This document shows, in pieces, positions 1 through 24,584 of a DNA stretch of 64,000 nucleotides. How positions within the stretch are numbered: position 1 is the stretch's first letter; every line of letters begins with the position of its first letter. The notes under the pieces were generated by a model. That model saw only the letters and a list, made by a program, of their open reading frames with translations, had not been told where the DNA came from and ran no database searches. Source of the DNA: Alphaproteobacteria bacterium (GTDB taxonomy: Bacteria; Pseudomonadota; Alphaproteobacteria; JABAAW01; JAHZMA01). Both the position numbers and the translations under genes were made by a program. The DNA lies in assembly GCA_965206365.1 (NCBI GenBank), contig CBDBJL010000004.1, positions 141,144 to 205,143 on the forward strand, in the 5' to 3' direction.

Positions 1-19
1 AAATCCAGCTTTTAATAAT

Positions 20-697: not shown

Positions 698-706
698 GAG
701 GCTTTT

Positions 707-1695: not shown

Positions 1696-1714
1696 ATAAA
1701 ACAAAGGAAATACT

Positions 1715-2158: not shown

Positions 2159-2185
2159 ACCAGTTTAATAAATGACGAGGTTCTC

Positions 2186-4456: not shown

Positions 4457-4480
4457 CCTTTAAAAACAGGAAGAATAATC

Positions 4481-4774
4481 ATGACCGCTGATAGCCATCA
4501 GCGGCAGGACGATATGGTGTGCCTGCCGCGTACAGAATTTGAGTCTCTGCTGGAGCAAGCTGCCTGCCGAGGGGCCAGAAAAGCCCTGAAGGAAGTTGGC
4601 TTGGCAGATGAAGAAGCCGCTCACGACATCCGTGATTTACGTGATCTGGCAGGCTCAATCAAAACCATGCAACGCACCTTTCTGCAAACCATCGTGCGCT
4701 GGATCACCATTGGTCTTCTGGCGCTCTTGGTCGCAGGTGTGGCTGCAAAAATTGGACCCTTCACCCCCAAATAA
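4481..4774 (+). CDS. small protein with C-terminal transmembrane helix
   Basis: GGA SD-like motif upstream; C-terminal hydrophobic helix (ITIGLLALLVAGVAA). Confidence 0.35.
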   Translation: MTADSHQRQDDMVCLPRTEFESLLEQAACRGARKALKEVGLADEEAAHDIRDLRDLAGSIKTMQRTFLQTIVRWITIGLLALLVAGVAAKIGPFTPK

Positions 4775-4788
4775 ATAGGAGAAAAACT

Positions 4789-5247
4789 ATGCTGACATTA
4801 CTTGGAAGCCTGCTGGGCTTTTTATCATCCGCATTCCCGGATTTTTTGAAACTCTGGCGCGATCATGCCGACCGCAAACATGAGCTGGCCATTCTGGATC
4901 GACAAATGGAGGCGCAACGCCAAGGCCACACACAACGCCTTGAAGAAATACATGTGCAGGCCGATGTGGCTGAAAGCAAGGCGCTCTATGCCCATGCCAG
5001 CCAGCCCAGCGGCGTAAAATGGGTGGAAGCGTTGCGGGCATCGGTACGTCCGATTATCACCTATGCATTCTTCATTCTGTTCGCCACCGTCAAAACCGCA
5101 GCGCTGTTCAAGCTACTGGATCAGGGTGTCGGTATTACCGACGGACTGATTGCCGTGTGGGATGGCGAAACGCAGGCATTATTTGCAGCGGTTATGTCCT
5201 TCTGGTTTGGGCAGCGCGCCTTAGCCAAATTCCGCTCAAACCCTTGA
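4789..5247 (+). CDS. membrane protein, holin-like candidate
   Basis: N-terminal transmembrane helix, coiled segment, then two C-terminal transmembrane helices; lies between the tail-tip genes and the endolysin. Confidence 0.35.
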   Translation: MLTLLGSLLGFLSSAFPDFLKLWRDHADRKHELAILDRQMEAQRQGHTQRLEEIHVQADVAESKALYAHASQPSGVKWVEALRASVRPIITYAFFILFATVKTAALFKLLDQGVGITDGLIAVWDGETQALFAAVMSFWFGQRALAKFRSNP

Positions 5248-5334
5248 AAAACATGATCTTATTCACTTGATAAGCGCTCGGAATGAAGCGTTACTGTAAG
5301 TGTAAAAAGCAATTGAAAACAAGGAGATAACACT

Positions 5335-6581: not shown

Positions 6582-6655
6582 TATTCATTCTCTTTCATTT
6601 TCGTACTCACAGATATTACCAAGATTTACCAATTTCACAAGAAAAGAGGAGAAAA

Positions 6656-7102: not shown

Positions 7103-7809
7103 GCTAAAGGAGATCTGTTCAAATCATCTCTGAAAGTTCTCCATTGGGGCATAATGCGATCCATATGAGCTATAAAGTTATCATTGTGTGTGCGCTCTAG
7201 AAAATGGACCATTTCATAAACGACAATATACTCAAGGCAGTTAATTGGTTTTTTGATAAGCTCCAAGTTAAGCCATATTCTTTTATGGCTGGGGTTACAG
7301 CTACCCCATTTTGTTTTCATCCTTTTAATGCCGAATGAATCCACCTGTAAACCAGACTTAATTTCCCATTTTCGAACAATGCCGGGGAGTATTCTTTTCA
7401 TTTCCTTACGGTACCAATCCGTAAGCAATTTTTCTCGATCCTCGAGTTCGGTGTCTCTATTGATATTTAACACCAGCGTTTTTTTATTTCGGATTTCAAT
7501 AAAGGGACGTTTTTCAGTCTCAGCAATATCTAATAAGTATCTACGGCCAAGATAGTAATGACTTTCCCCAGTAATGAGCTCTCTGGCACTCTGGCGGGGT
7601 TGATCTTCAAAAGATTTTATTTGGCGCTTAATCCACCCGAATTTCGATATGACGGCTAATCTAACAGCCTCATCGTCAACAATTTCTGGAACAGCAATTC
7701 TGACCCATCCATTAGGTGGGTAAACAGCCAAGTGAAGGTTTTTTATTTTCTTTCGGATAACCTTCACAGGCAGTTCATTTACAGTAATTGTGCTTTCATT
7801 AGTACTCAC
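7081..7809 (-). CDS. M48/DUF45-family zinc metallopeptidase (YgjP-like, type I R-M associated)
   Basis: HExxH motif in YEMVHFLERTHN; 242 aa; immediately downstream of hsdR. Confidence 0.75.
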   Translation of the reverse strand: MSTNESTITVNELPVKVIRKKIKNLHLAVYPPNGWVRIAVPEIVDDEAVRLAVISKFGWIKRQIKSFEDQPRQSARELITGESHYYLGRRYLLDIAETEKRPFIEIRNKKTLVLNINRDTELEDREKLLTDWYRKEMKRILPGIVRKWEIKSGLQVDSFGIKRMKTKWGSCNPSHKRIWLNLELIKKPINCLEYIVVYEMVHFLERTHNDNFIAHMDRIMPQWRTFRDDLNRSPLAHENWEY

Positions 7810-10800
7810 TTTGATTTTTCACCAGTTCAAGTATTTGTTTCGCGTCATAGTCAGTAACGCTCAGAACAGAACGAATAGCCAGTTCTATTTCGCGTTCTTT
7901 GAACCTATTTCCACGAAAGCCGTCCTTCTTGGTAGCTCTAACAATTTTATCCACTTCAATGGCAAGATTCTCATCCTTTCCTAAATTGTCGTAGAGTGCT
8001 CTTTTGGCCGCAGAGTTCAAGGATTTTGGATAAGAGCTGTTTGTTTCTGGTCTTGAAACCTTTCCAGACAAATCAATAATCTTTTTCAGATAATCCTTAT
8101 ATTTAAGTGCCTGATCTTTACGCTCTTGAATGAGTGCATCAAGAAGCTCGGACATCTTTTCGTAGTATTTTGGGTTAACAGGCTGTTCATCAATGATGAC
8201 TTTTCGAATGTTATTTTCGATGGTTTCGGCAATAGCTTCCTCGTTGTTACGAATTCCTTCGGGTAGTTCTTTGATTGCATCTTCTCCGCGCTCAACAATA
8301 AGCTGGATAAGGCTGAGATCATCGAAAGCTGATATCTTTTGGCTTTCTTCTGCTCGGATATATGAATCAATCAAATGACGCATTGAAGGCTCGTAGACCT
8401 TCATGTCGATATAATCACCACTGGCCATTTTGACTTCAGTTCGAACAGATTCATAATGCTGCACTTCCGCCTTAATCTCTTCAATTTCTTCAGGCGAGTA
8501 GCCAGCATCAGCCATTTCATTTGCCAGAGCGGCATATGCGCGAATGAATGAACCACTTTCCTTGTACAATGCTAATCTACGCGGTTCGTTGTCCTTCAAA
8601 GCATCTTTGTCAGATGTATCCAGTGCACAGAAATATTGAATATACGCAGCAGTGTCTTTTGGTGTGCCAACATTTTCACAAAGAGCTTTTACGGTTTCGC
8701 GTGTTTCATCCAAGCGTTCTCTGGCTTTGATAAGACGATCTTCAAGTAGGCCAGCAACGTCCTCTTTGTCGTATTTATCAAATGCACCGCAAGTATAGTC
8801 TTGAATAGAGCTTTCCAAGCTGTTGAACAAATCCTTGTAGTCAATAATGTATCCGTATTCTTTATCCTCACCATCCAAGCGGTTTACGCGACAAATAGCT
8901 TGGAAAAGGCCATGATCTTGCATCTTTTTATCGATATAGAGATAGGTGGCAGATGGCGCATCAAATCCCGTTAGCAATTTATCGACTACAATCAGCAGAC
9001 GCATTTGTCCGGGTTCATCTACGAATTTTTCTTTAACTTTCTTCTCGAACTCATCAGCACGATTTACGGCCTGATCAGCAGGCTCGTCAAAGAAGTTAGC
9101 CAGCATTTTACGGTAGATATCATACTGGTGCAGTCTTTCGGTATACCCTGCGCCACTTTCTTCATTTTTAATATCTTGTGGTGATGGTTTGTAGGAGGTC
9201 ACAATCGCGCATTTGCCAGAAAGGTCTGTCTTATCAAAAAGCTCAAAGAATTTGCATGCTTGATAAATACTGCCAGAAACCAGAATTGCGTTACCACGGC
9301 CATCTGCAAGCCGATCCCGCGTTTCCATATCCAGCAAAATATCCGCAACAATATTTTCCAGACGTGATTGAGAGCTGAGAACCTTTTGCATGGTTCCCCA
9401 TTTCTTTTTCAATTGTGCCCGGGCGAAATCATTGAGACCTTTTGTCTTTGCCTCAAACCACAGATCAATTTTGTCCTGAGAGGTAATGTTCTGGTCAATG
9501 TCACGCGCCTCATAGCGCAAGTCGAGTACAACGCCGTCCTTAACGGCCTCATCAAATTTGTATGTATGAATGTAAGGCCCGAAAACTTCGAGGCTGGTTT
9601 GCTTATCATCCTTGAGCAAAGGTGTACCTGTAAAACCGATAAATAAGGCATTCGGCAAGATCTTCTTCATGGCCGTATGTAGCTTGCCGGACTGCGTACG
9701 GTGACATTCATCTACAAACACATAGATGTCACCCTTTGCCTCAAAGTTGGACATCATATTCTTCTGAATTTCAGCCAAGAACTTGTCGACATCTTCATCA
9801 GACAATTCATCATTATCTGAGCCGCCAAATTTATGGACAAGCGAACACATCAGCCACTGATCGGTTCCATTCAGCGTATGAACAAGATCAGAGCCACTGG
9901 TGGTGCGATAAATATCCTCATCGACACCGCGATAAACTTTCTCTATTTGTTCGTCCAGTTCGGTACGATCGGTGATAATTAGAACGCGAGAGTCCTTCAC
10001 GTTCTCACGTATCCATTTTGTGAGCCACACCATGGTCAGGCTTTTGCCCGAACCTTGCGTATGCCAGATGATCCCGCCCTGGCGACGGCGAATATGATCC
10101 TGCGCTTCCTTGATCCCAAAATATTGGTTCTGGCGGCAAGTCTTTTTTACACCTGCATCAAAAACGATGAAGTCATGTATTAGCTCAAGTAAACGATGTT
10201 TCTCGCACATAATTGAGAGGTGCCGATCCAGTTTATAGTCACCAATGCCACCGTCTTCTTTCCATTCCAGATAATACTTCTCGCTGGTCTCAATGGTGCC
10301 GTACCGCAAGCCTTGCGTATCATTTCCAGCCATCACTAATTGCATGGTGGTGAAGAATGGACGGATGAAGTCTTTTCGCTGATTAAGCAGATTCTGGCGA
10401 ATGCCTTCAGTAAGGCCAATGATGGAGCGTTTTAGCTCAACCACACCAATGGCTATACCGTTAAGATACAGCACTACATCCGGACGTTTGGTGTTGTTAC
10501 CTTTGACGGTGACTTCCTCAGCAATTGCAAAATCATTCTTTTCTGGTTCAGTCCAGTTGATAAGCCAAACAGTTTGATTTTGCTCGCCAGCGCCTTCCTT
10601 AACCTTGATGCCATAACGCAGCAGACGGTAAACGTCTTTGTTGGCGTCATAGAGGCTACGCCCATCGCCCAGTGCTGCAGCCTGATCTAACTCATGTAAA
10701 GCACGTTCAATGAGTTTGTCGCTGTAGCCTTGCTTTTGCAGAAATGCCTTTAACAGGCTTGGCTCTATGTTCTTATTCTCGCGGTCCTTCCGATCCCCAA

Positions 10801-10885
10801 GATAATCATACCCAAGTTGATCTTTGAACAACTTAACGATGCGGTTTTGCGTAACGCGCTCTATGGCTCCAACTTTACTCATCAT
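7799..10885 (-). CDS. hsdR: type I restriction enzyme R subunit
   Basis: SF2 helicase motifs (GSGKSLTMVWL, DECHRTQSG) and HsdR N-terminal region; ORF is open to 11002 but the likely start is MMSKVG at about 10885, overlapping the dinD stop. Confidence 0.9.
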   Translation of the reverse strand: MMSKVGAIERVTQNRIVKLFKDQLGYDYLGDRKDRENKNIEPSLLKAFLQKQGYSDKLIERALHELDQAAALGDGRSLYDANKDVYRLLRYGIKVKEGAGEQNQTVWLINWTEPEKNDFAIAEEVTVKGNNTKRPDVVLYLNGIAIGVVELKRSIIGLTEGIRQNLLNQRKDFIRPFFTTMQLVMAGNDTQGLRYGTIETSEKYYLEWKEDGGIGDYKLDRHLSIMCEKHRLLELIHDFIVFDAGVKKTCRQNQYFGIKEAQDHIRRRQGGIIWHTQGSGKSLTMVWLTKWIRENVKDSRVLIITDRTELDEQIEKVYRGVDEDIYRTTSGSDLVHTLNGTDQWLMCSLVHKFGGSDNDELSDEDVDKFLAEIQKNMMSNFEAKGDIYVFVDECHRTQSGKLHTAMKKILPNALFIGFTGTPLLKDDKQTSLEVFGPYIHTYKFDEAVKDGVVLDLRYEARDIDQNITSQDKIDLWFEAKTKGLNDFARAQLKKKWGTMQKVLSSQSRLENIVADILLDMETRDRLADGRGNAILVSGSIYQACKFFELFDKTDLSGKCAIVTSYKPSPQDIKNEESGAGYTERLHQYDIYRKMLANFFDEPADQAVNRADEFEKKVKEKFVDEPGQMRLLIVVDKLLTGFDAPSATYLYIDKKMQDHGLFQAICRVNRLDGEDKEYGYIIDYKDLFNSLESSIQDYTCGAFDKYDKEDVAGLLEDRLIKARERLDETRETVKALCENVGTPKDTAAYIQYFCALDTSDKDALKDNEPRRLALYKESGSFIRAYAALANEMADAGYSPEEIEEIKAEVQHYESVRTEVKMASGDYIDMKVYEPSMRHLIDSYIRAEESQKISAFDDLSLIQLIVERGEDAIKELPEGIRNNEEAIAETIENNIRKVIIDEQPVNPKYYEKMSELLDALIQERKDQALKYKDYLKKIIDLSGKVSRPETNSSYPKSLNSAAKRALYDNLGKDENLAIEVDKIVRATKKDGFRGNRFKEREIELAIRSVLSVTDYDAKQILELVKNQSEY

Positions 10886-11726
10886 TACTGTCCAAACTGT
10901 CTGGTGATTTAAGTGCTTTCTTCTCCTGCGAGGCAATACGACGCTCAAGCTTCTTGATATCTTCTGCAGGTGGTAAGGATTCTGGCCGGATACCACGTTC
11001 AATCAAAGTCTTACGAACAGCCTGATTATTGGTGACATGCTCACCGGATATCTGTGCTTCGGTACTCATATTATTTTCACGGGCGTTATGGATGGTAATT
11101 TCCGTCGCAAAGTCTTTCGCTTTTAGGATAATGGTTGACGCAAAATCGGCCAGTGGGCGACTATTAGGCACTTTCCACTGCGCCTTCATCTGCTGGGTGC
11201 TTTTGCCACACAACGCTTGGTCCCCCTTGCTGCGAATAATACCGAAATTGCGATCTTGACCTGTTTGCTCGTATATCACCTCTGATAGCTCTTTTTCTGT
11301 TTGGGTCAGCTTTTTGCGCGCAGAAAGACGCTCTTGTTCCAGAATGCGCTGCTCAATCAGCTCAGCCCTGCGGGTTTGCATGGCAAAATAGGTCTGAGCA
11401 AAGGCTATCTGTTCTTTTCTTGGGTCGCCGTTCTGAGCAATGAGATAGCAAGCGTAACGGGTAAGCATAACATCATCTATCTCTCGCTTACCGCCGGAAC
11501 CAAGATCGACCATTTTGCCGACGTCAGCAAAATGGTCAGAGACCTCATGCCCGCTGACCTCACAGGCCACTTTGGCCTTCGAGATCACCTGAGCAAAGTT
11601 TCGCCACTGGTCATATCCCAGAAGATGCTGCAAATCACGGGCAAGCCAGTATTCCACTTCACCCTCAGTTTGCTGGGCATGAAGCTCAAAATTATCTGTT
11701 AGTGTGGTAATGAGCTCTTTTTTCAT
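10875..11726 (-). CDS. dinD: DNA-damage-inducible protein D-like (Bro-N domain)
   Basis: Matches DinD from recalled sequence (EYWLARDL..L.Y..WRNF..V..A...C..SGH..SDHF....KMV.LGSG..RE..DV.L.RYACYL..QNGDP); inserted between hsdS and hsdR. Confidence 0.7.
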   Translation of the reverse strand: MKKELITTLTDNFELHAQQTEGEVEYWLARDLQHLLGYDQWRNFAQVISKAKVACEVSGHEVSDHFADVGKMVDLGSGGKREIDDVMLTRYACYLIAQNGDPRKEQIAFAQTYFAMQTRRAELIEQRILEQERLSARKKLTQTEKELSEVIYEQTGQDRNFGIIRSKGDQALCGKSTQQMKAQWKVPNSRPLADFASTIILKAKDFATEITIHNARENNMSTEAQISGEHVTNNQAVRKTLIERGIRPESLPPAEDIKKLERRIASQEKKALKSPDSLDSNDE

Positions 11727-13034
11727 GCCGCCTCCTGCTTTTTGTCGGTTTTGGTTAATCGTGTTTTGCCTGTCAAAAGCTCCTGCATCATGCCTGTCTT
11801 GAGGCTGAGGGCCTTGGCAAGGCGCTGCTCAAGCGCGTCAATTTCAGCATCCATGTCAGACAAGATATTAGAAATCGCGGTTTGCTCATCTTTATCAGGA
11901 AACTTGAATTCCATTGATTCAACTGATTTTGGTGTCAAATTATTAATGCTGGAACCAGCTAAAAGGACATCAATTTGTTTTCTGCAATAATCTGAATTGA
12001 GAAGATAAAAAATAAATTTTGGAATGGATTTTTTAAGGTCGGTGCGAAAGCACCCCATAAAAGCGCCAAATGTAAATTTATTGCTCTTGTTGTCAGAAAA
12101 AATAGCGGATTTTCCAATTAATTTTTTACTTCCATTTGCCATACATATGACAATGTCATTTTCATTTAAATATTGCTCGGTTGATACACATCCCCTCTTT
12201 ACAAACTGAACATCTGAAAAGTTTACTCTTGCAAATTTAATATTGTTAGACCGCAATAAGTATGGCTGCGTCATTATTGTCAGATGCAAATAGATCTGTC
12301 GCTCCACTGTAACTCACACCGCGCAAACAACTGCCAAATTCACCTAATTGAAACTCTTTCCATTCTTCATCAAACCCCGGAAGGCGTTTTTTGCCTGTAA
12401 GGAGCTCTTGCATGGCGGCGGTTTTCATGTCGTGTTTTTTGACGATCAGCTTCTCAAGGCTTTTAATCAGTCCATCCACATCTGACAGTGCTGCCGCAAT
12501 CTGCTTTTGCTCTTCAGGCTTGGGAAGAGGCAATACTATGGATGAAAGCAGCCGTCCATTTGTTAACGCCCTAGTTGTATAGGTACTTTTGGAAGTTATC
12601 TGTTTTCTTACTTCATCAGAGGAAAAACAGTATTTGCAATAATCCTCTTCAATTGACTTGGATTTGGGGCGACCACGCAATACAAAGCCACTAAATACTG
12701 TTTCATTGCAATCGTCCAACATCACAGATGCAACACCAATATCTTCAACAGTTTCAGATGTCCGTGTAAAAAAAACATCTCCTTTTTTGACCGAAAAGTT
12801 TTGCTTTTCTTGAAACGTTACATCAACTTTTCCCTGAAGATTATTGAGCCTCAAGCCTGAAAAATTAAAAACGTCCATATAGTTAACAATAGGCGTTCCG
12901 TAACCAAAGAATTCTTTGGCTTTATTTAAACCATTCTTAAACTCAAAAAGATCACCAATTAGAGCTTCATCCCAATCCTCTGGGATAACGCCGATGTCTG
13001 TTTGTTTATATCCTGCCTTCATATCTGCCATCAC
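11723..13034 (-). pseudogene. hsdS: type I R-M specificity subunit, disrupted by a frameshift between 12246 and about 12330
   Basis: ORF 12246..13034 holds TRD1, the central conserved repeat and the start of TRD2; ORF 11723..12307 in another frame holds the rest of TRD2 and the C-terminal conserved region (LKTGMMQELLTGKTRL). Confidence 0.7.
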
Positions 13035-15514
13035 CAGCTTAACCCCATCTTTTTCAAATGCTCTTCCACGCGGTCGGAGTAATCTGAAACCTGCTTGGTC
13101 AGTTCCGGCATGGGGTGGGCATAGCGTTCTTCAAGCTCTTTCACGCGGTTCGCCAAAACTTGCGTTACACGTTCCACCTCTGCCGCTACATCTGCACTAA
13201 GGCGGTCAAACCATTTGTCGATGACAACCAATTCCTTAATCTCGTCAACATCAAGTTTGGCGTAATGCGATACGGTTTTCTTATCGAGTTCGAGCTGCTG
13301 CACCTTTATCTTCGAGGCCAGCGCACTTTCTTGATCCAGCAGTTTCTGCGCTTGTTTCAGGACGACCATTTCATCCTCAAGGTCTTCATCGCCTTTAATT
13401 TCTTTCATACGATCCTTGAGGCTGGTTTTCGTAAGCTTGCCTTTATCATTTTTCGCATCTTCCAGCAGACCTTCTTCGCCACTGTGCTCTTCGGTCAGCT
13501 CTTCAATTTCCCCTGCAACGGTCTCACGCTGTGCTTCAAGCCCATCAATGGCCTGCTTCTCATCCGCAAAATAGCGCTGCACAATTAAGGCAGGTGGGAT
13601 CAGCTCAGCTTTGAATTTTTGAGCCTTTTTGCCTGTGCCGACAACGATGTCTGGTGTTTCTTTGACTTTTTTGTCCTTGTCTTTTTCATCAATGATCAAG
13701 CGTATTTGCGCTGCGTCTTTCCAACCTTCACCGGAGATTTGATAAACATCATCCTGCATGACCTCAGACCAGTAATTCATTAAATGCTGGTACACATCGT
13801 ATTTATCGATCAGTGGAATATTTGAGAAAGTGGAAAGCAAGTCCTCTGAAATTTCCCAGATCACATCCTTTGGCTTGCAGTCTTGTTCGAGTGATTTTAG
13901 ATATGGCTCGTACTTATCTTTCCAACCTGTCAGGGTTTCTTCGGCCTTTTTGGCATATGCCTGATATTCAGCTGAATCCAGTATGGTGGATTTGACTTGA
14001 TCGCTTGGCACGCGGGCAATGAGATAATCTGGGCTGCCATTTTGTTTGAAGAGTGCTTCGCGGGTTGCTGTAAATACATTCCAGTAACGCTGGAGTTCAT
14101 CAACATCACGTTTTGGAATGCCACCCTTTAAATGCGCTGTTAGATCATGGATGTCCGCTTCATCACCGCTATCAATATAGCGCGGCAGATTAAGGTTATA
14201 GTCATTTTTCGGATCTGATATTTCGGAGACAGGTACCAAGCGGGAGAAGCCTTCGATTTCTAACCCCTTATTGAAAACATCAACAATTTTGTGAATGTCT
14301 TGGGAGCGAAGGCGGTTCTTATTACCATCTTTGATAAAGCCCTTACTCGCATCAATCATAAAGATGCCTTTGCGGGACGCGGCATGTTCTTTGTCTAGCA
14401 CAATAATACAGGCTGGAATGCCTGTGCCGTAAAACAAGTTTGCGGGCAGGCCTATCACACCTTTGATATAACCACGCTTCACCACTTCTTTACGGATGGT
14501 GGCTTCCGCGTTCCCACGGAACAATACGCCGTGTGGAAGAATGACAGCGCCTTTACCAGTGCTTTTCAACGAACGGACAATGTGCAGCAAAAAGGCATAA
14601 TCGCCATTCTTCGATGGGGGCACGCCATAATCAAAACGGCCATATAAGTCGGTGATGGTCTTTTTCTTCTCGTCCTTGGCAAAACCGTTTTGCCATGATT
14701 TGGTTGAGAATGGAGGGTTGGCGACCACAAAATCAAATGTTTTCAGCTCAGATGCAGATGGTGCAAATGCTGGGGCAGATAGAGTGCTGCTCCCACCCGC
14801 TTCAATTTCAGCGGTCGGGTTGTCATGCAAGATCATGTTCATTTTTGCCAGCGCGGTAGTGGCAACATCTTTTTCCTGACCGTAAATAGACATACCACTT
14901 GGCGATTCATCAGCTGCTTTCAACAACAATGAGCCAGAGCCACATGTGGGGTCGTAAACTGTTTGGTCTTGGCGCGTTTCTTTACCGATGCCGATGACTT
15001 TGGCCATGATACGGGAAACTTCGGCAGGCGTATAAAACTGCCCTTTGCTTTTACCGCTTTCCGTTGCGAAGTGGCGCATCAGATATTCATAGGCATCCCC
15101 GAGGAGGTCGTCGCCTTCTGCGCGATTGCTACGGAAATCCAGATCATTAAAAATCGATACCAGCTTTGACAGCCGGTCCTGCATTTCCTTACCTTTGCCA
15201 AGTTTGTCTTCGTCATTGAAATCGGCAACATCAATCACACCCTTGAGACCATTGGCTTCGGCAAGTTTGCCGATGGCTTTGTTAATTTTATCACCGATCT
15301 CTTTATCGCCTTTGAGGGCAACCAAATCAGCGAAGCCACCGCCTTCTGGAATTTCAATCAATGAGTTTGGCTTGCCTGCGTATTTGTCAGACACATATTT
15401 TACGAAGAGCAATGTCAGTACATAGTCTTTGTACTGTGAGGCATCCATCCCGCCACGCAGTTCGTCGCAACTTTTCCAGAGTGAGCTGTATAACGCTGAT
15501 TTTTTAATTGCCAT
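13031..15514 (-). CDS. hsdM: type I R-M N6-adenine methyltransferase subunit, long form with coiled-coil C-terminal extension
   Basis: HsdM N-terminal region, NPPF catalytic motif (VVANPPFS) and an approx. 300-aa charged coiled-coil C-terminus; probable start is the internal Met (ORF open to 15547); ATGA overlap with hsdS. Confidence 0.9.
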   Translation of the reverse strand: MAIKKSALYSSLWKSCDELRGGMDASQYKDYVLTLLFVKYVSDKYAGKPNSLIEIPEGGGFADLVALKGDKEIGDKINKAIGKLAEANGLKGVIDVADFNDEDKLGKGKEMQDRLSKLVSIFNDLDFRSNRAEGDDLLGDAYEYLMRHFATESGKSKGQFYTPAEVSRIMAKVIGIGKETRQDQTVYDPTCGSGSLLLKAADESPSGMSIYGQEKDVATTALAKMNMILHDNPTAEIEAGGSSTLSAPAFAPSASELKTFDFVVANPPFSTKSWQNGFAKDEKKKTITDLYGRFDYGVPPSKNGDYAFLLHIVRSLKSTGKGAVILPHGVLFRGNAEATIRKEVVKRGYIKGVIGLPANLFYGTGIPACIIVLDKEHAASRKGIFMIDASKGFIKDGNKNRLRSQDIHKIVDVFNKGLEIEGFSRLVPVSEISDPKNDYNLNLPRYIDSGDEADIHDLTAHLKGGIPKRDVDELQRYWNVFTATREALFKQNGSPDYLIARVPSDQVKSTILDSAEYQAYAKKAEETLTGWKDKYEPYLKSLEQDCKPKDVIWEISEDLLSTFSNIPLIDKYDVYQHLMNYWSEVMQDDVYQISGEGWKDAAQIRLIIDEKDKDKKVKETPDIVVGTGKKAQKFKAELIPPALIVQRYFADEKQAIDGLEAQRETVAGEIEELTEEHSGEEGLLEDAKNDKGKLTKTSLKDRMKEIKGDEDLEDEMVVLKQAQKLLDQESALASKIKVQQLELDKKTVSHYAKLDVDEIKELVVIDKWFDRLSADVAAEVERVTQVLANRVKELEERYAHPMPELTKQVSDYSDRVEEHLKKMGLSW

Positions 15515-15704
15515 CGTTTTTGTCCTCGCCTTTTTGTTCTTGCTCACTGATCCAGCGGTCTACCTCGCTTTTGCGAAACCGCCACGCGCTTCCCACTTTG
15601 AAGCCCGGAACCTTGCCCTCAGATGCAAATCGATAGGCCGTCTTCTCAGCAATCTTGAGGTAATCGGCGAGTTCCTTCACGGTCATAATGTCATCATTAG
15701 TCAT
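15504..15704 (-). CDS. AlpA/excisionase-family HTH DNA-binding protein
   Basis: 66 aa with MerR/AlpA-like HTH (TVKELADYLKIAEKTAYRFASEGKVPGFKVGSAWRF); heads the hsdM operon. Confidence 0.65.
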   Translation of the reverse strand: MTNDDIMTVKELADYLKIAEKTAYRFASEGKVPGFKVGSAWRFRKSEVDRWISEQEQKGEDKNDGN

Positions 15705-15802: not shown

Positions 15803-16834
15803 ATGCAGCAATACGGTAACGATAAGATTCTCTACTCACCATCGGACTTGGTCACCTTTTTAGGGTGTCACCATGCGAGCTTCCTTGATGTGAAGGCGCT
15901 GAGTGAGAGCATGGATAAGGCCGAGGCCAGCACCACAGGCCAACTATTGCAGCAAAAAGGCTTGGAGCATGAGGCGGCGTATCTCCAACAACTCAAAGAC
16001 GAAGGTAAGTCCGTCGTTGAAATCCCCAAAGACCGCAATTTGCAAGACCGCGCCCAGCTCACATTAGAGGCCATGCAGTCCGGTGCGGATGTCATTTATC
16101 AGGCCGTATTCTTTGCCCCGCCATGGCGAGGAGATGCCGATTTTCTGATTAAGTGCACTACGCCGTCCGACTTGGGTGATTTCAGCTATGAGGTGCTGGA
16201 TACCAAACTGGCACAAACAGCTGAGCCCAAGCATATCATGCAGCTTTGTGTCTATTCTGAGCTGCTGACTTACCTTCAGGGATTGCGCCCAGCTGATATG
16301 CATTTGTTTCTGGGCGATCATGAAAAACACAGCTTCCGCGTGGCAGACTTTTTCTATTACTACACCCGCGCTAAAGGCCGCTTTGAAACCTATCTGAAAA
16401 GCATGCCAGCAGACTCATATCCTGAGCCTTGCGGTCATTGTAATTTCTGTCCATGGCGCGAGGGCTGCAAAGCGCAGTGGGAACAAGATGATCATTTAAG
16501 CCTTGTGGCCAACATCCAACGCTCACAGATGGATAAGCTGCGGAAAGCTGGCATCTGCACCGTTGCGGAGCTTGCTGCCACAGCGCCTGACACCAAAATT
16601 CCTGATTTGAGCCGTGATGTGTTTTTACGCCTGCGTTCACAAGCCGTCCTGCAACATCACAAAGCCACCACGGGTGAAAATAAATGCGAGATCATTCCGT
16701 TCCCGCCGGGCAAAGGCTTTACCCGTATGCCAGTGCCTGATGATGGTGATCTGTTCTTTGATATGGAGGGCGATCCGCTTTACCCAAATGGTTTGGAATA
16801 TTTGTTTGGGGTCTATTATCGGAACGCGCCGTAA
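15803..16834 (+). pseudogene. N-terminal fragment of a RecB/Cas4-like (TM0106-family) nuclease-helicase gene, interrupted by an IS
   Basis: PD-(D/E)xK RecB-like region with Cys cluster (CGHCNFCPWREGC); reading frame terminated by IS605-family end sequence. Confidence 0.7.
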
Positions 16835-16874
16835 AACCTCGTCCTTCAGGGCGGGGATATAAGGCGCAACCGCG

Positions 16875-17297
16875 CTAGCGCGGTTTTTTGTTGGCTCGCT
16901 GCGTTTCGACATATTTGCGGATAATATCGAGCGGCGCACCACCACATGAAGCGGCAAAATAAGACGGCGACCAAAGGACACCTTTGCGATACCTACCCGT
17001 AATTTCAGGGCGAAAGCTTCGCAAACGGCGACTGGATACACCCTTGAGACTGTTGACCAGCTTAGAGAGGGATATTTTGGGCGGATAATTGATAAGCAGA
17101 TGCACATGGTCGTCTTCCCCGTCACACTCGACGAGTTGCGCCTCAAAGTCGTTGCAGACCTTGGCAAAGATGTGCCGCAAGTCCTGTATAGCCAGTTCTG
17201 ACAGCACATCTCTGCGGTATTTGGTAATAAATACCAAGTGTACGTGTAGCGCAAAAACACAATGTCTGCCTGTGCGATATTCATTTGAGTTGTCCAT
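16875..17297 (-). CDS. tnpA: IS200/IS605 Y1 (HuH) transposase
   Basis: HVHLLI (HuH) and catalytic Tyr region; track ORF extends to 17354 but the family-typical start is MDNSNEYRTGRH. Confidence 0.8.
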   Translation of the reverse strand: MDNSNEYRTGRHCVFALHVHLVFITKYRRDVLSELAIQDLRHIFAKVCNDFEAQLVECDGEDDHVHLLINYPPKISLSKLVNSLKGVSSRRLRSFRPEITGRYRKGVLWSPSYFAASCGGAPLDIIRKYVETQRANKKPR

Positions 17298-17319
17298 AGA
17301 CCAATGGTAGAGTCGAGAT

Positions 17320-18489
17320 ATGCTAAAGGCAACCAAAGTCCGATTGTATCCCACTGTTGACCAGAGGAAGGCGTTTGCCTTTCAATTTGGCGCGATGCGG
17401 TGGGCGTATAATTTTACTTTGGGCTGGCGTAGCTCCGCTTGGAAAGAGCGCGGCGAAAGCATCAGCAAGCGCCAGACCTTGGACAAGCTCGTTGAACTGA
17501 AAGCCACGGAAGAAACAGGCTGGCTAAAGGAAGCCGATAGCCAAGCCTTGCAACAATCGGTGATGCATTTGGATGATGCCTTTAAGCGATTTTTTAGAAA
17601 ACAGGGCCGCTATCCCCGCTTTAAGAGCAAACACGGCAAACAAGCCATGTCCTACCCGCAACGGGTCAAAATTGTAAATGGTGTCAGTCTGTACTTGCCC
17701 AAAGTCGGCACGGTCAAAGCAGTTCTGCACCGTGAGATTGTAGGTAAGATTAAGACCGTCACCATCTCGCGCACTCAAACAGGTAAGTACTATGCGTCAA
17801 TCTTGTGTGATGATGGGCTGGAGGTTCCAGCCCTCTTAAAAACGATTGAAGCGGACGCGGTGACGGGTATTGATTTGGGCATAACGCATTTAGCGATTGC
17901 CAGCACGGGTGAAAAACAAAAGAACCCCCGTATTTTGAAACGTGCGGCGGCCAATTTGCGCCGCAAGCAAAAAACACTGTCACGAAAGAAGAAAGGGTCG
18001 GCAAACCGCAACAAGGCGCGTGTACTTGTTGCCAAGGCTCACGAAAGAACTGCCAACACGCGCAATGACTTTCAACATAAATTGTCAAAACGACTGGTTG
18101 ACGAAAATCAAGCAATCTGCGTGGAGACGTTGAAAGTCAAAAACATGCTCAAGAATAGGAAGCTTGCCAAACATATCGCTGACGCGGCATGGGGCGAATT
18201 GCTCCGAAAGCTGACCTACAAAACAGCTTGGTCAGGTAAGCACCTCGTGCAAATTGACCAGTGGTTTGCATCCAGTAAGACCTGTTCTGATTGCGGCACT
18301 AAGGTTGATGCTATGCCGCTGTCGGTGCGGCAATGGACGTGCCAGACCTGCGACCAAGAGCATGACCGCGATATTAACGCTGCCATCAATATTCGGCAAC
18401 AAGGTATCCTGAAACTAAAGGCGGAAGGGCTATCCGTCTCTGCTTGTGGAGGCTCGCGTAATTCTGGCACACTGCCAGTTGCAGCCTGA
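17320..18489 (+). CDS. tnpB: IS605 OrfB/TnpB RuvC-like RNA-guided endonuclease
   Basis: RuvC-like motifs and C-terminal zinc finger CSDCG...CQTCD; 389 aa. Confidence 0.85.
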   Translation: MLKATKVRLYPTVDQRKAFAFQFGAMRWAYNFTLGWRSSAWKERGESISKRQTLDKLVELKATEETGWLKEADSQALQQSVMHLDDAFKRFFRKQGRYPRFKSKHGKQAMSYPQRVKIVNGVSLYLPKVGTVKAVLHREIVGKIKTVTISRTQTGKYYASILCDDGLEVPALLKTIEADAVTGIDLGITHLAIASTGEKQKNPRILKRAAANLRRKQKTLSRKKKGSANRNKARVLVAKAHERTANTRNDFQHKLSKRLVDENQAICVETLKVKNMLKNRKLAKHIADAAWGELLRKLTYKTAWSGKHLVQIDQWFASSKTCSDCGTKVDAMPLSVRQWTCQTCDQEHDRDINAAINIRQQGILKLKAEGLSVSACGGSRNSGTLPVAA

Positions 18490-20854
18490 GAAACAAGAAG
18501 CCTCGTCCTTTAGGGCGAGGAGTAGTCACTTCAAAGATGGTAAGGAGCTATTCCTTCCGTTCTGGGCGCATGATCATGAAGAAGAGAAAGAAACCTTTAA
18601 GCGCTTCATGGGTTTTTTAACCGATCATCTGGCTGAACACCCGCATGCCCATATCTATCATTACAACCATTATGAAACCACAGCCCTGAAACGCTTGGCC
18701 TGCCGTTATGCTGTGTGTGAGGAGCAGCTGGATAATCTGCTCCGCAATCAAAAATTCATTGATCTGTATCTGGTGGTACGTGAAAGCATCCGCACCTCTG
18801 AGCCCGGCTATTCCATCAAGAACATGGAAACATTCTATATGGATAAGCGAGCCAACGCTGTGGCGACTGCTGCTGATAGCATCATCGTCTATAACGAATG
18901 GCGCGAAACGGGCGCGGATGAATTGCTACAGGAAATTTCTGATTATAACGAGGTGGACTGCGTTTCCACGCATTTGCTGCGCGATTGGCTTCTCACGCTT
19001 AAGCCGGAAGATGCCCCTTGGTTTAAGGGCTTGCCTGAATATGCTGAGGAAGAAGAGCTACAACGCAAGGACTGGGAAATCGAATATGAGGATTACCAAA
19101 CCCGTCTTGGTGTGACCGAGGATAATCCACCGCCGATCAATGAGCGGCTATCCCATCTGCTGGAGTTTCATAACCGTGAAGCCAAACCACAATGGTGGAG
19201 CAGCTTTGAACGGCAGAACAAGTTTGAAGATGAACTAATTGACGATACGGAGTGCCTCGGAGGCTTGCAGCAGGTGGGCAGCCCAGAACCTGAAAAACGC
19301 TCCCTGATTTACAGCTACCGCTTCCCATCGCAGGAATACAAGCTGAAGGTTGGCGCACAGGCCGTTGATATTGCCGTCATGGAAAATGTAGGCACGATTG
19401 TCGAGATTGATGAAGATGCCTGCATCGTCAAAATCAAGCGCGGGGCCAACAAAGAGCCATTGCCGGAAAGCCTCTCCATTGGCCCACCGGGGCCGATTGA
19501 CAGCAAGATCATCCGCTCAGCCATTTACCGCTATGCCGATCATGTGTTGGAAGTGCCGGAAGGTACTCACGCCGCGACCGAATTGCTGGCACGCAATGTT
19601 CCGCGCATACAGGGCAAACAATCAGGTGAAGCGGTCATCACCTCTGATGATCTGCAAAGCGATGCGCTGGAAGCCATTGCTGCGTTAGATAACAGCTATC
19701 TCTTCATCCAAGGCCCGCCGGGCGCGGGTAAAACCTACACCAGCAGTCATATCATTGTGGACTTGATCAAGCGGGGCAAGAAAATCGGTGTAACCTCCAA
19801 CTCGCACAAAGCCATTCATAACTTGCTCGAAAAAGTGGAAAGCGTTGCCGCTGAAAAAGGCGTGAACTTCCATGGCATTAAAAAAGCCAGTGGCGGGAAT
19901 GATGAAACCATCTTCGATGGGCGATTCATCCGCTCAGAAACCAAGACCGACAATATGAGCCTTGGCGCTGATCTGTTTGCGGGTACCGCATGGACATTTG
20001 CCAGCCCACACTTTGATGGTCAGCTTGATTATCTGTTCATTGATGAGGCCGGACAAGTCGCCACGGCCAATGTGGTGGCGATGGCCACGGCAACCAAGAA
20101 CCTTATTCTGGTCGCTGACCAGATGCAATTGGGCCAGCCCATACAAGGCACTCACCCGGGTGAAGCCGGATTATCAGTGCTGGAATTCTTGCTGGGCGAT
20201 CATTCCACCATCCCGGCTGAGCGGGGTATTTTCCTTGGCCAGACACGCCGCATGCGCCCAACTATCTGCCAGTTTATCTCGGATGCCTTTTATGATGGCC
20301 GCCTGACAGCCCATGAGAGCACTGCTGAGCGCAGCTTGAACCTGCAAGGTGTTGATCTGCCCAATGAGGGGATTGTCATGATCCCGGCAGAGCATGAAGG
20401 CTGCTCACAAAAAAGCATCGAGGAAGGCGAAATCATCAAAGCTAAATATGATGCCTTGCTTGGCCAAGAATTTATCGACCGTGATGGAACCACACGCTCG
20501 ATCACCGAAGATGATATTCTGGTGGTCACCCCATACAATGTGCAGGTCAATTACCTACGTTCCATCCTGCCGGACAATGCTAAGGTCGGAACCGTTGATA
20601 AGTTTCAAGGCCAAGAAGCGCCCATTGTGCTGATTTCCATGGTGACATCCAGTGCCGAAGACCTGCCGCGCAATATTGAGTTCCTCTACAGCAAAAACCG
20701 TCTGAATGTTGCCGTTTCACGCGCACAATGTTTGGCCTTAGTGGTCGCCAATCCCAAACTGCTGGAAATCCCATGCGGCACTGTGGAGCAGATGAGATTG
20801 GTCAACACATTCTGCTGGCTGGATGAGTATGCTGAATCTGTTACAAGTAAATAA
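18446..20854 (+). pseudogene. C-terminal fragment of the same nuclease-helicase gene (RNase-H-like exonuclease domain plus SF1 Upf1-like helicase)
   Basis: First approx. 30 codons are IS right-end sequence; the genuine gene resumes near 18530 (DGKELFLPFWAHDHEEE); Walker A GPPGAGKTYT and AAA_11/AAA_12-type helicase motifs. Confidence 0.7.
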
Positions 20855-20859
20855 GAACT

Positions 20860-21350
20860 GAACAACTACCGACTTTCGTCGGTAGGTTCACGTTTTGAAT
20901 GTAATTCAAGATACTGACGAATAACGTCATCCGTCACATTTCCACTCGTCGTTGAAAAATAGCCTCTAGCCCAGAACCGTTGCCCCCAATAGCGTTTGCG
21001 TAATTCGGGGTACTCCCGCTGTATCTTGTATGAGGACCTCCCTTTTACGCGTTGCATCACCTTTGAAATTGGGACGTGCGGCGGGACTGACACAAACATA
21101 TGCACATGGTCGGTAGACAATACGCCTTTTTCAATGTGTACGCCCAATTCATTGCACGTTTGTCGTATCAATGTCCGAATACGCTCACGCATTTCACCAC
21201 GCAGCACCTTGTAACGATATTTTGTTACCCAAACGATATGGTATCTGTGATAATATCTGCTATGACTTCCAGTAGAATAGATCATAAGGTTTCCTTCCAT
21301 TTTAAGACCTTACCGCAACGCTGGGTCTTAAAATGGAAGGAAACCTTATG
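20860..21350 (-). mobile_element. solo IS200-like element
   Basis: tnpA flanked by a 26-bp perfect hairpin (21284-21309 / 21324-21349) on one side and a ctaccgac...gtcggtag hairpin (20868-20887) on the other. Confidence 0.7.
20866..21300 (-). CDS. tnpA: IS200 Y1 transposase
   Basis: HVHMFV HuH motif; typical IS200 TnpA length and sequence (YHIVWVTKYRYKVL). Confidence 0.85.
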   Translation of the reverse strand: MEGNLMIYSTGSHSRYYHRYHIVWVTKYRYKVLRGEMRERIRTLIRQTCNELGVHIEKGVLSTDHVHMFVSVPPHVPISKVMQRVKGRSSYKIQREYPELRKRYWGQRFWARGYFSTTSGNVTDDVIRQYLELHSKREPTDESR

Positions 21351-21400
21351 TAAATAACGCTAAAGCTGACCAGCTAAAAGCTGGTGGTTTTAACCAATTA

Positions 21401-23224
21401 TTGGAAAATAAATTTACGATAGATGAAGCATTCAGGGAGTGCTTTTATGTCGTGCCGGACTATCAACGCGAATATGTCTGGACAGAAAAGCAGATTACGC
21501 AGCTGCTTGAAGATATAAACGAGCAGATGGATAGCAGTTCGTCTGAATATTTTATCGGTACCATTCTCGTGTCCCCGCGAGATGGAGAAAAAGGCCATTA
21601 TGATGTTATAGACGGGCAGCAACGCCTAACTACAACCTTTTTGATTTTATGTGCCTTGAGAGTTCTTTTCAGTGGAATGCCGCAGGGGCAAATGATCAAT
21701 GGATTAACCGCCACCAGCTATACAGATGCACAAGGTGACATTAAAACCAATCTCAAACTTGAACCCAGATACGAAAATGCTGGGGAGGTTATAGAGAAGA
21801 TCGTTCAGGCCAACGGTGATCCGCAAGCCGTTCGTGCCAATATCCAAAGTTCCGGCATTCAGATTTATGGGTCTGTTGAGAATATATTGAACGCCTATGA
21901 TGTTATTTATCGCTTTTTGACCAATAACTATGACGACGAAGCCACGCTGAAAAAATATTGGGGCCATCTGGCCAATAACGTGGTTTTCATTCAAATCTCT
22001 ACGGACGTCAGCAGCGCATTAAAAATATTTGAAACAATTAATGAGCGCGGCGTTGGTCTGAATCCCATGGACCTTCTAAAGAATCTGTTGTTCACTCAGG
22101 TGTCACCAGAACGGTTCTCCCAGCTCAAAGATGAATGGAAAAAGATCACCAGCCCGCTCGAAAAAAACAAAGAAAAGCCACTTCGTTTCTTGCGTTACTT
22201 CCTCATGGCTAATTATGACATCAGGAACGAACGTAACGATGCGATTGTTCGCGAAGATGAGATTTATGATTGGTTCTCTAAGAAGGAAAATGCAGCCCTT
22301 ACAGGCTATCAGGAAAACCCCTTTGAATTTGTTCGGCAGATCACACGTAATGTAAATCGCTACATAGATTTCAGTAATGGGCTTGGCAATGACGGCAAAC
22401 CCAGTTTGGCGATGGACTCTCTTAAAAAACTAACAGGCGGCGCATTCAGTCTGCACTACGTCTTGCTGCTAGCGGCAGCGAATTTGCCAAAGCCACTATT
22501 TGATCAATTTGTGGCACAGCTCGAAAACTTCTTGTTCTTCTACATTTTCACCAAGACCCCAACCAAAGACCTTGAACGCAGCTTCTCGCTTTGGGCTGAT
22601 GAGGTCCGAGATATTGCTCAACTCGAAAATCCTGAAGAGCAGAGACAAAAACTCAATGATTTTGTGTCTGAACGTTTTGCTCAGAACATGGTCAAAAAGA
22701 CGCCAGAGCTTAAAGATGCATTGAAACGTTTGACGTTACACTCCATGCAGCAATACCGCACACGTTATTTGCTGGCACGCTTAACGCAGCATGTGGATAT
22801 GGCATTCAGTGGACAAAAGGTACGAGGAAGTCTTGACCCATATTTTAAATTAGAGATAGAGCACATCCTGCCTAACAACCCTGAAAATGATCTGCGAAAC
22901 ACATGGCAGGAAAAGCATCCAGAGCTGATTTATGATGAACACAAAAACCGCCTTGGCAATCTGACTCTGCTGGAGAAGCCCATCAATATTGTTGCTGGCA
23001 ATGACTTCTATGCAGGTAAAGTTTCTGAATATGCGAAGAGCGGCAATTACCTAACAAGAAGCCTTTCTGCTCTTGCTGAAGTTGGCCAAAACACATCTAT
23101 TTCCCGTATAAACGAAAAACTGTCCGTGTTTAAAAAATGGGATGCGGAGGACGTCGAAAGTCGGCAATTGCTACTGATCGCCTTAGCTCAAGAGATTTGG
23201 AAGACCACAGAAATTACAGCTTAA
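21401..23224 (+). CDS. GmrSD-like type IV restriction enzyme (DUF262 ParB-like N-domain plus DUF1524 His-Me C-domain)
   Basis: DGQQRLTT motif of DUF262; C-terminal EIEHILPNNP...HKNRLGNLTLLEK typical of DUF1524. Confidence 0.8.
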   Translation: MENKFTIDEAFRECFYVVPDYQREYVWTEKQITQLLEDINEQMDSSSSEYFIGTILVSPRDGEKGHYDVIDGQQRLTTTFLILCALRVLFSGMPQGQMINGLTATSYTDAQGDIKTNLKLEPRYENAGEVIEKIVQANGDPQAVRANIQSSGIQIYGSVENILNAYDVIYRFLTNNYDDEATLKKYWGHLANNVVFIQISTDVSSALKIFETINERGVGLNPMDLLKNLLFTQVSPERFSQLKDEWKKITSPLEKNKEKPLRFLRYFLMANYDIRNERNDAIVREDEIYDWFSKKENAALTGYQENPFEFVRQITRNVNRYIDFSNGLGNDGKPSLAMDSLKKLTGGAFSLHYVLLLAAANLPKPLFDQFVAQLENFLFFYIFTKTPTKDLERSFSLWADEVRDIAQLENPEEQRQKLNDFVSERFAQNMVKKTPELKDALKRLTLHSMQQYRTRYLLARLTQHVDMAFSGQKVRGSLDPYFKLEIEHILPNNPENDLRNTWQEKHPELIYDEHKNRLGNLTLLEKPINIVAGNDFYAGKVSEYAKSGNYLTRSLSALAEVGQNTSISRINEKLSVFKKWDAEDVESRQLLLIALAQEIWKTTEITA

Positions 23225-23430
23225 TGCGTTTCCTATGAATCCCAAACAGGGATTCGAACCCACGTTTGGTACGGTACTTTTGCCACGATGATTGAAGTCA
23301 TGCCAAGAGCAGAAATCAAAGCAGCATAAGGTGTTGCAACATAAAACTTGCTTTTCGTTGTTTTCAGGGCAATTATTTGTTGCAACACTATGGTAGGTGT
23401 AGAGGATTCGAACTCAAAGGGGTTCAATAC

Positions 23431-23480
23431 ACCGCCATTAGTTCTAATATATGCTCGCACTGAACCCAATGTGTATTTGA
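23431..23480. repeat. direct repeat copy 1 (approx. 46 bp, tRNA-like fragment context)
   Basis: ccgccattagttctaatatatgctcgcactgaacccaatgtgta is approx. 85% identical to 24187-24233; adjacent to T-arm-like ggattcgaac motifs at 23247-23260 and 23404-23415. Confidence 0.5.
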
Positions 23481-24454: not shown

Positions 24455-24528
24455 GGTCTCGTAGCTCATCAGGATAGAGCGCCAGATTCCTAATCTGGAG
24501 GTAACAGGTTCGAGTCCTGTCGAGATCG
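24455..24528 (+). tRNA. tRNA-Arg (anticodon CCT)
   Basis: Hand-folded cloverleaf: acceptor ggtctcg/cgagatc, D-arm gctc/gagc, anticodon stem ccaga/tctgg with loop ttCCTaa, T-arm acagg-ttcgagt-cctgt, discriminator G; CCA not encoded. Confidence 0.85.
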
Positions 24529-24584
24529 CCCCTTTTATCTCATTCCCAAGAAAAACCCGCTTTTATGCCTAACGAATATTGCTC

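Follow-up and report, generated by a model that had tools for sequence, protein, structure and literature searches.

The 64,000-nt stretch of DNA considered here (the window: assembly GCA_965206365.1 of an Alphaproteobacteria bacterium, contig CBDBJL010000004.1, positions 141,144 to 205,143 of the forward strand) contains an insertion sequence (IS) of the IS200/IS605 family, located between two open reading frames (ORFs) that together resemble a single protein. A preliminary description, made by a model that saw only the letters and their ORFs, had taken these ORFs for the halves of one TM0106-type nuclease/RNase-H-like/Upf1-like helicase gene split by an IS with tnpA and tnpB, and had called the gene a probable anti-phage gene. 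According to our analysis, the locus very probably arose by insertion of a complete IS200/IS605 element after codon 339 of a 1113-codon nuclease-exonuclease-helicase gene, which was thereby disrupted within a defence island. The features that carry this reading are listed below (LE and RE, left and right ends of the IS; TAM, target-adjacent motif).

15803..16819, + strand: 5' part of the host gene, codons 1-339, encoding a Cas4-like PD-(D/E)xK nuclease with four cysteines, a linker, and strands beta1-beta2 of an exonuclease, including its DxE motif
16816..16819, + strand: TTAT target (expected TAM), directly 5' of the left end of the IS
16820..18529, + strand: complete IS200/IS605-family element, 1710 bp, in the order LE-tnpA(-)-tnpB(+)-RE, delimited by in-silico excision and by sister copies
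16837..16856, + strand: LE subterminal hairpin, CCTCGTCC-TTCA-GGGCGGGG, 17 nt inside the left end
16868..16885, with T-run to 16890, + strand: terminator-like hairpin AACCGCGCTAGCGCGGTT followed by the T-run TTTTTGTTGG, inside LE
16875..17297, - strand: tnpA, Y1 HUH transposase, 140 aa from the ATG at 17297 (PF01797, 3.1e-40; NF033573, 145.4 bits, cutoff 55)
17320..18489, + strand: tnpB, RNA-guided endonuclease family, 389 aa, no internal stop (Pfam and NCBIfam profiles)
18400..18529, + strand: putative omega-RNA scaffold, made up of the tnpB 3' end and RE (conservation)
18501..18520, + strand: RE subterminal hairpin, CCTCGTCC-TTTA-GGGCGAGG
18530..20854, + strand: 3' part of the host gene, codons 340-1113 plus stop, encoding the remainder of the DEDDy-type exonuclease, a beta-barrel/linker and an Upf1-like helicase of superfamily 1B (SF1B)

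The two reading frames are ORF A (15803..16834, + strand, 343 aa) and ORF B (18446..20854, + strand, 802 aa). With the IS boundaries at 16819/18530, the four residues that end ORF A (RNAP*) and the 28 codons that open ORF B are IS-encoded; the start of the second half had been put at about 18530, which holds for its host-derived part, whereas the ORF itself begins at 18446. Deletion of 16820..18529 in silico restored one 3342-nt ORF of 1113 aa, not the ~1150 aa first proposed, with no internal stops. This ORF aligned at 88.8% nucleotide identity, gap-free over the junction, with the gene in locus L001 encoding P0001, the closest homologue among the matches listed (1114 aa, 96% identity). A search with the provisional reconstruction returned thousands of single-chain homologues of ~1110 aa (120/120 of those listed were single chains), and in more than 100 homologues both halves matched contiguous parts of the same protein rather than two different complete ones. 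In a blastn comparison of the window with 50 homologue-carrying loci, the alignments broke exactly at 16819/18530 in 20 or more loci, with contiguous continuation in at least 15. The empty site sought in other genomes, ...GGGGTCTATTAT/TTCAAAGATGG... (the slash marks the junction, TTAT/TTCAAAG), is thus present in at least 15 homologous loci, and the homologues read ...LEYLFGVYY-FKDGKELF... over the break position.

Profile searches placed the break inside a single domain model: positions 4-314 of TIGR03491 matched ORF A (162.9 bits) and positions 320-462 matched residues 34-182 of ORF B (126.5 bits), both above the cutoff of 97.45, and the contiguity of these positions indicates that one domain is split between the two ORFs. 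ORF B also matched the Pfam families RNase_H_2, AAA_11 and AAA_12, while no Pfam match was obtained in ORF A at E<0.001. Residue conservation was read from an alignment of 56 homologues (59-91% identity). Invariant positions of the nuclease (C22, D113, E130, K135, Q147, Y151, C210, C213, C216 and C222) make up the Cas4/RecB-type PD-(D/E)xK motifs (D...(D/E)xK and QxxxY) and a four-cysteine pattern, C...CxxCx5C, of a predicted Fe-S cluster. Those of the exonuclease (D320, E322, E388, Y478 and D482) fit the DEDDy-type 3'-5' exonuclease pattern, and in the helicase G734-T741 (Walker A, GPPGAGKT), E845 (DEAGQ) and R1070 (motif VI, VAVSRA) are invariant. All catalytic-motif residues are intact in the two halves present in the window.

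In an AlphaFold2 model of P0001 (predicted local distance difference test score 87.6, predicted template modelling score 0.81), residue 339 falls within strand E331-341, which is beta2 of the RNase-H-like exonuclease fold; the IS therefore parts the DxE motif from the remainder of the exonuclease domain and from the helicase. The best, and the only full-length, Foldseek match in the PDB was Dna2 (5EAN, E 5.5e-28, TM-score 0.37, 14% identity), followed by the helicase cores of Upf1, IGHMBP2, Sen1 and nsp13, and PDB sequence matches were limited to the helicase (IGHMBP2, UPF1 and DNA2). The AAA_11/AAA_12 core, Walker A, Walker B, motif VI and the fold match together identify an SF1B Upf1-like helicase. 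The protein is predicted, from the model, to work like a Dna2-type nuclease-helicase with an additional exonuclease. Like Dna2 (PDB 5EAN/5EAW/5EAX), it would combine an N-terminal PD-(D/E)xK nuclease with a four-cysteine cluster and an SF1B Upf1-like helicase in one chain; it differs in having a DEDDy-type exonuclease and a beta-rich linker between the two. An assignment as a Dna2 orthologue was rejected on account of this extra domain, the confinement of sequence similarity to the helicase, and Foldseek identities of 13-14% at TM-scores of 0.35-0.39. The architecture is that of TIGR03491/COG2251 proteins (PD-(D/E)xK nuclease plus PF13482 exonuclease, often with tandem AAA domains), a family without experimentally assigned function whose COG2251/PF13482 members have been catalogued as uncharacterised (Majorek et al. 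2014, PMC3985635). Our literature search on TM0106, COG2251 and PF13482 found that classification paper and no functional study.

The element itself, 16820..18529, has each defining sequence feature of the IS200/IS605 family. It is inserted in a fixed orientation 3' of a conserved tetra-/pentanucleotide, and both terminal inverted repeats and a target-site duplication are absent. Imperfect subterminal palindromes lie at both ends as direct copies on the same strand: the 64 kb hold exactly two occurrences of the motif CCTCGTCCTTYAGGGCGRGG, 16837-16856 and 18501-18520, each on the + strand, where chance would give none, in line with the matching subterminal hairpins described earlier. The RE hairpin is followed by the last 9 nt of the element, AGTAGTCAC. 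Relatives with 70-80% identity keep the LE hairpin as CCCCGTCC..GGGCGGGG; the third stem position is T-A in the window RE, C-G in the relatives' LE and C-G or G-G in most related REs, which reads as a compensatory change. The terminator-like hairpin inside LE also has an equivalent in these diverged relatives, and, with its T-run, is so oriented that it would terminate transcription arriving from the host gene.

Although the tnpA ORF as listed spans 16875..17354 (- strand), translation probably begins at the ATG at 17297, and the same 140-aa product is predicted by gene callers in other copies; its translation shows the HUH and Tyr motifs (HVHLL and SPSYF). TnpB scored 346.6 bits against NF040570 (cutoff 100, residues 6-360) and 406.5 bits against NF038281 (IS200_TnpB), slightly below the cutoff of 425 for the latter. 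Its Pfam domains (HTH_OrfB_IS605, OrfB_IS605 and Cas12f1-like_TNB) and these profile matches indicate a full-length protein with RuvC and Zn-finger domains. Elements whose overall identity is no more than 70-80% hardly differ over the last ~130 nt of the IS, where there is a stem with compensatory base pairs and an insertion in the loop. This is the conservation that an omega-RNA scaffold would predict; no Rfam omega-RNA family matched over the IS (only spurious miRNA matches to the IS200 stem), so that the scaffold stays putative. The predicted guide would be the flank from 18530 (TTCAAAGATGGTAAGG...), which matches the uninterrupted allele.

The ends are the same in sister copies. Across exactly positions 1-1710, identity is 99.8-99.9% in 17 or more further full-length copies, and at least 22 near-identical copies were counted (in loci L002-L011, L024, L025, L028, L067 and L135-L144), with unrelated flanks, the same termini, and no duplication in any of them. 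Every full-length copy starts with CGGAACGCGCCGTAAAA and then the hairpin, and ends with the hairpin and then AGTAGTCAC. The left junction lies 3' of TTAT in 19/22 copies, the exceptions being TTAC, TAAT and TCAT. A scan of a genome collection found the TnpB protein 100% identical in metagenome-assembled genomes (MAGs) labelled Kiloniella sp. (at least 7 copies), Amylibacter sp., Alphaproteobacteria and 'bacterium', and other marine MAGs contained relatives at 70-83% identity. Further copies, found by exact match of the protein, come from metagenome ERZ25069296, some on contigs with the plasmid genes Rep3, ParA/ParDE and TraI/TraG, one of these contigs being marked circular. The element is apparently active. 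That near-identical copies occur both on plasmid-like contigs and in MAGs assigned to different genera implies very recent horizontal spread in one community, or else cross-talk in binning.

The other insertion sites include integrase-like, RepA-like, primase, IS21 transposase and BKACE genes, and are mostly genes related to mobile genetic elements (MGEs) or intergenic; among the IS-family loci L002-L080, no other copy adjoins a helicase homologue. At one further locus, however, a 99.88%-identical 1710-bp IS splits another allele of the host gene after codon 60, at ...GAGACAGCTTAT/ (L137; ERZ25069296, ctg22972_24x_l, 2321-7170). This allele has 95.8% amino acid identity to P0001 and ~88% nucleotide identity to the window gene over the 182-nt 5' segment compared, and the insertion represents an independent event in the same gene family. 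IS66 genes sit beside the remnant of the neighbouring restriction-modification (R-M) system (hsdS), where hsdM would be expected.

In the mechanism that we propose, the IS would have entered by single-strand peel-and-paste transposition directly 3' of TTAT, after codon 339. The insertion divides the exonuclease DxE motif from the rest of its domain and from the helicase, and the IS adds an inward terminator-like hairpin; with both in place, the full-length protein could not be made. The insertion is recent: neither half has acquired other lesions, and the IS copies retain 99.8-99.9% identity to one another. With the omega RNA from this copy supplying the guide TTCAAAGATGGTAAGG... beside a TTAT TAM, TnpB would cut any empty allele that is restored or newly arrives, and the knock-out would thereby be stabilised. 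The scaffold and guide, peel-and-paste transposition, and TnpB homing or retention with TAM-dependent cleavage are all carried over from published TnpB biology (PMC8612924; 10.1101/2023.03.14.532601). As an event, this is of an ordinary type, mobile elements eroding accessory genes, and the element is a member of a known IS family that happens to be unusually well resolved. Its value is as a clean example: the ends are exact, the target is TTAT, sister copies number at least 22, many relatives show the empty site, and there are a nested second IS and a predicted guide.

The surroundings of the host gene comprise the following features.

7799..11002: hsdR of the upstream R-M operon
11723..13034 and 10875..11726, - strand: hsdS as two overlapping ORFs (262 and 194 aa, one Methylase_S domain each), and a Bro-N/PDC-S13 gene
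13031..15547: hsdM, in the operon upstream of the helicase gene
15504..15704, - strand: small HTH_17 (AlpA/excisionase-like) gene, the first gene of the R-M operon, divergent from the nuclease-helicase gene (PF12728, 1.3e-16)
20857..21406, - strand: IS200 element with tnpA alone, 550 bp, boundaries ambiguous by 1 nt (PF01797, 4.4e-42)
21283..21350, - strand: 27-bp perfect stem over the ribosome-binding site and start codon of the tnpA gene of this second IS
21407..23224, + strand: GmrSD-type (DUF262 plus DUF1524/HNH) type IV restriction gene, 607 aa (GmrSD_N, 9.3e-42; GmrSD_C, 2e-19)
23224..23441, - strand: conserved ~215-bp element, from the comparison of loci

Domain content bears out the type I R-M system on the left and the GmrSD enzyme on the right that had been reported. 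The Bro-N gene (PDC-S13 in PADLOC) lies between hsdS and hsdR; the two hsdS ORFs, across which GC falls to 0.38, may reflect a frameshift or two half-S subunits. A YgjP-like peptidase gene is also among the genes flanking the host gene in the window. HTH_17 homologues occupy the equivalent position in L001 and L083, and the segment 15530-15802 of the window is conserved in many loci.

We pooled the ORFs up to 5 kb upstream of the host gene in 21 non-redundant loci with an intact homologue and annotated them with Pfam. They included HsdM (5), HsdS (6), HsdR (4), other methyltransferases (3), RhuM (3) and AAA_15/21 ATPases (3). R-M or other defence-type neighbours were found upstream in about half of the loci with enough flank. 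Pooled downstream ORFs were heterogeneous (VRR-NUC, DUF488, Fic-like and BrxA/B proteins, recombinases and housekeeping genes); in L001, the helicase stop codon overlaps the start of a VRR-NUC protein gene (TGATG). Homologues occur at 85-96% amino acid identity across unrelated contexts and are often truncated or decayed (L093, L107, L110, L111, L115 and L121-L131), with internal deletions in L107 and L110, and only the first 33 codons and the upstream HTH_17 region left in L127-L131. Such transfer across contexts and frequent decay are typical of defence-island cargo, unlike housekeeping repair genes. Two other candidate lesions were set aside: L093 is not a second break at the same site but a 5' truncation by a tyrosine-recombinase gene, with TTAT/TTCAAAG intact, and the C-terminus of the window helicase has not been altered by the second IS, as the tail after WLDEYA is naturally variable.

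The second IS begins 2 nt past the helicase stop codon, its LE side abutting the GmrSD ORF, and its tnpA lies at 20866..21285 (- strand). The long stem over the tnpA start resembles IS200 translational control. Two 100%-identical copies are present in an Amylibacter MAG locus (L025), and both ISs of the window recur, with 99.9-100% identity, among MAGs labelled Kiloniella and Amylibacter. In L025 (1951-4210), one 550-bp copy is nested in the 1710-bp IS at IS position ~407, within tnpA, and this gives an empty site for the smaller element, which inserted 3' of TTTAT(T) without duplication.

The GmrSD gene matched PADLOC Orf5/HEC-06 over its full length (Orf5, 6.9e-91). It proved to be more than the adjoining neighbour that the preliminary description had made of it: the helicase-then-GmrSD order recurs in the IS-free loci L145 (2637-7836; helicase P0012 and GmrSD P0136) and L146 (322-3657; the closest relative, 89.5-91% nucleotide identity), where the genes are 22-23 nt apart with a Shine-Dalgarno sequence in the spacer. 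GmrSD homologues have 611 aa and start MARIENHKF (MARIENHKFTIDEAF). Compared with L146, 39 nt (AGGAG and codons 1-7) are missing from the window on the helicase-gene side of the second IS, an element unmentioned before; in frame, translation could start only from a TTG within the IS end (21401), which has no Shine-Dalgarno sequence. The 550-bp IS separates the two genes and has displaced the native GmrSD translation start: the GmrSD ORF survives at 607 aa, while the native signals for its translation, and with them the coupling to the helicase gene, are gone. The helicase gene and GmrSD as a conserved pair in two IS-free loci are a new observation, and together with the VRR-NUC case they suggest two-gene operons with exchangeable downstream nucleases. 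A 607-aa ORF downstream of the helicase gene in L086 was considered as another GmrSD and rejected, having no similarity to it.

On the strength of its gene neighbourhood, a defence or anti-MGE role of the host gene is probable, and the three-enzyme protein, widely transferred, uncharacterised, keeping the company of R-M systems and pairing with GmrSD, is a reasonable defence-gene candidate. The R-M and GmrSD surroundings agree with the label of a probable anti-phage gene; partial PADLOC matches and the lack of literature on function temper it. Several observations weigh against the reading as a whole or in its parts. PADLOC-DB v2 returned no full-length system match, and its partial matches (MkoA, MkoC, Nhi and DpdJ) cover only the C-terminal half of the helicase (MkoA/MkoC, residues ~816-1100 of 1114). 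In L081, an intact homologue is surrounded by copper-resistance and housekeeping genes, with no defence neighbours. In principle, read-through tnpB transcripts could still allow a C-terminal fragment to be made; the omega RNA went undetected by Rfam, and covariation in its stem is limited. The same insertion was found in no public contig, either by an exact look-up of the 343-aa N-terminal fragment or by an exact left-flank 25-mer search of metagenome_contigs.

One alternative is that the host gene encodes a DNA repair or replication enzyme (Dna2- or AddAB-like end-processing) or an MGE maintenance function, its loss being unrelated to phage immunity. We consider this unlikely. In its favour, the best full-length fold match is Dna2, no PADLOC family covers the protein over its full length, the L081 neighbourhood is non-defence, and plasmid-like or IS-rich contigs hold many of the IS copies as well as one allele of the gene. 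Such a role sits less well with the R-M and defence-type genes upstream in about half of the informative loci, with downstream partners such as GmrSD and VRR-NUC at operon spacing, and with the spread of often truncated or decayed alleles at 85-96% amino acid identity. A different possibility accepts the insertion and takes it to have been selected rather than to be neutral decay, the gene being autotoxic, or restricting plasmids or single-stranded DNA elements, and hence repeatedly struck by the same IS. The second insertion in L137 makes two among ~22 known sites for a target of 3.3 kb, which is suggestive of selection or of local hopping, and the GmrSD gene of the window and the R-M system of L137 are also IS-damaged. 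However, local hopping on IS-rich replicons would enrich for such cases too, the genes hit at the remaining sites are varied, insertions are tolerated in accessory islands, and a compelling statistical case cannot be built on two events; we regard selection as quite unlikely.

Two further explanations would remove the insertion event altogether. An assembly chimera, in which two loci were joined through a multi-copy IS, is very improbable: although many near-identical IS copies exist in related assemblies and the junctions were matched in no public contig, the flanks continue each other exactly and in frame at TTAT, with equal identity on both sides to L001, L085 and other loci, and an accidental join of two loci would not yield so perfect an empty site. 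It is harder still to credit a natural two-subunit enzyme with an IS that merely lies between its ORFs, an explanation that has the existence of two ORFs in its favour and nothing further; the break falls inside a beta-strand of one domain and inside one hidden Markov model, IS-encoded residues (4 and 28) form the ORF ends, and the listed homologues are without exception single-chain.

Compared with known systems, the 1710-bp element is closest in organisation to the IS605 group (IS605, IS606 and IS608 of Helicobacter pylori, and ISDra2 of Deinococcus), with which it shares a Y1 HUH TnpA, TnpB, subterminal hairpins, the absence of target duplication, an LE beside a short T-rich target, and a conserved 3' end where the putative omega RNA would lie. 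In IS605 and IS606, too, tnpA and tnpB are divergent, and IS606 targets TTTAT. The window element differs in its own TTAT target and ends (CGGAACGCGCC... and ...GAGTAGTCAC), and its best DNA matches in a plasmid database are ~65% identical with partial coverage. The 550-bp element resembles IS200 of the Salmonella/E. coli type in having only a Y1 tnpA, a long stem over the ribosome-binding site and start, and terminal hairpins, but it targets TTTAT(T); at ~700 bp, classical IS200 is longer. The host protein shares with Mokosh MkoA/MkoC and with Nhi an SF1 Upf1-like helicase core (PADLOC MkoA 8e-47, MkoC 1e-32, Nhi 6e-4) and an island location, whereas the match is confined to the helicase C-half and there are no Mokosh or Nhi partner genes; the Mokosh nuclease is a phospholipase D-type enzyme, as opposed to the Cas4-like one of the host protein. 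The downstream gene has the GmrSD_N and GmrSD_C domains of GmrSD/BrxU-type type IV enzymes, and is set apart from them by its pairing with a nuclease-helicase gene and, in the window copy, by the missing native start.

The ~215-bp element that follows GmrSD recurs downstream of the helicase gene in ~20 loci, in constant relative orientation and at distances of 85 bp to 7.5 kb according to the intervening cargo, so that it closes a variable slot. Hardly any variation is seen over the first 48 nt, which end ...GGTTCGAATCCTCTACACCTACCA, like the T-loop and acceptor end (...ACCA) of a tRNA; two TGTTGCAACA palindromes and a second T-loop-like motif follow. A tRNA or tmRNA was rejected, as ARAGORN made no call even at lowered thresholds and Rfam gave no match, and RNAalifold runs on 7 and 16 sequences showed no covariation. 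A second copy of the T-arm motif, marking the other end of the island, was not found in the window. Candidate identities for the element are a remnant of an att site, an operator region and an RNA. At its most speculative, and we think it improbable, the TM0106-type protein would be the conserved core of an undescribed modular defence or anti-MGE cassette, with a divergent R-M operon led by HTH_17 upstream and, downstream, a slot for interchangeable effectors (GmrSD, VRR-NUC, DUF488, Fic-like) closed by the 215-bp element with its tRNA-like motifs; in one IS-rich marine community, a single kind of TnpB-carrying IS would have knocked out this cassette again and again, and the guide RNA of that IS would police the intact allele.

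A homologous type I R-M operon (82-92% nucleotide identity) lies downstream of the helicase gene and convergent with it in L089 (11412-19327) and L110 (11954-15102), as against upstream and divergent in the window, which indicates that island modules have been reshuffled between genomes. The left edge of the island (window 1..5300) abuts phage-tail-like genes (DUF1833; Phage-tail_3 / GpJ FNIII), and a tRNA-Arg(CCT) gene lies 1 kb past its right edge (24455..24530). The sequences of window segments 5000-5624 and 6651-7068 are found again at the flanks of islands in L113, L102 and L121.

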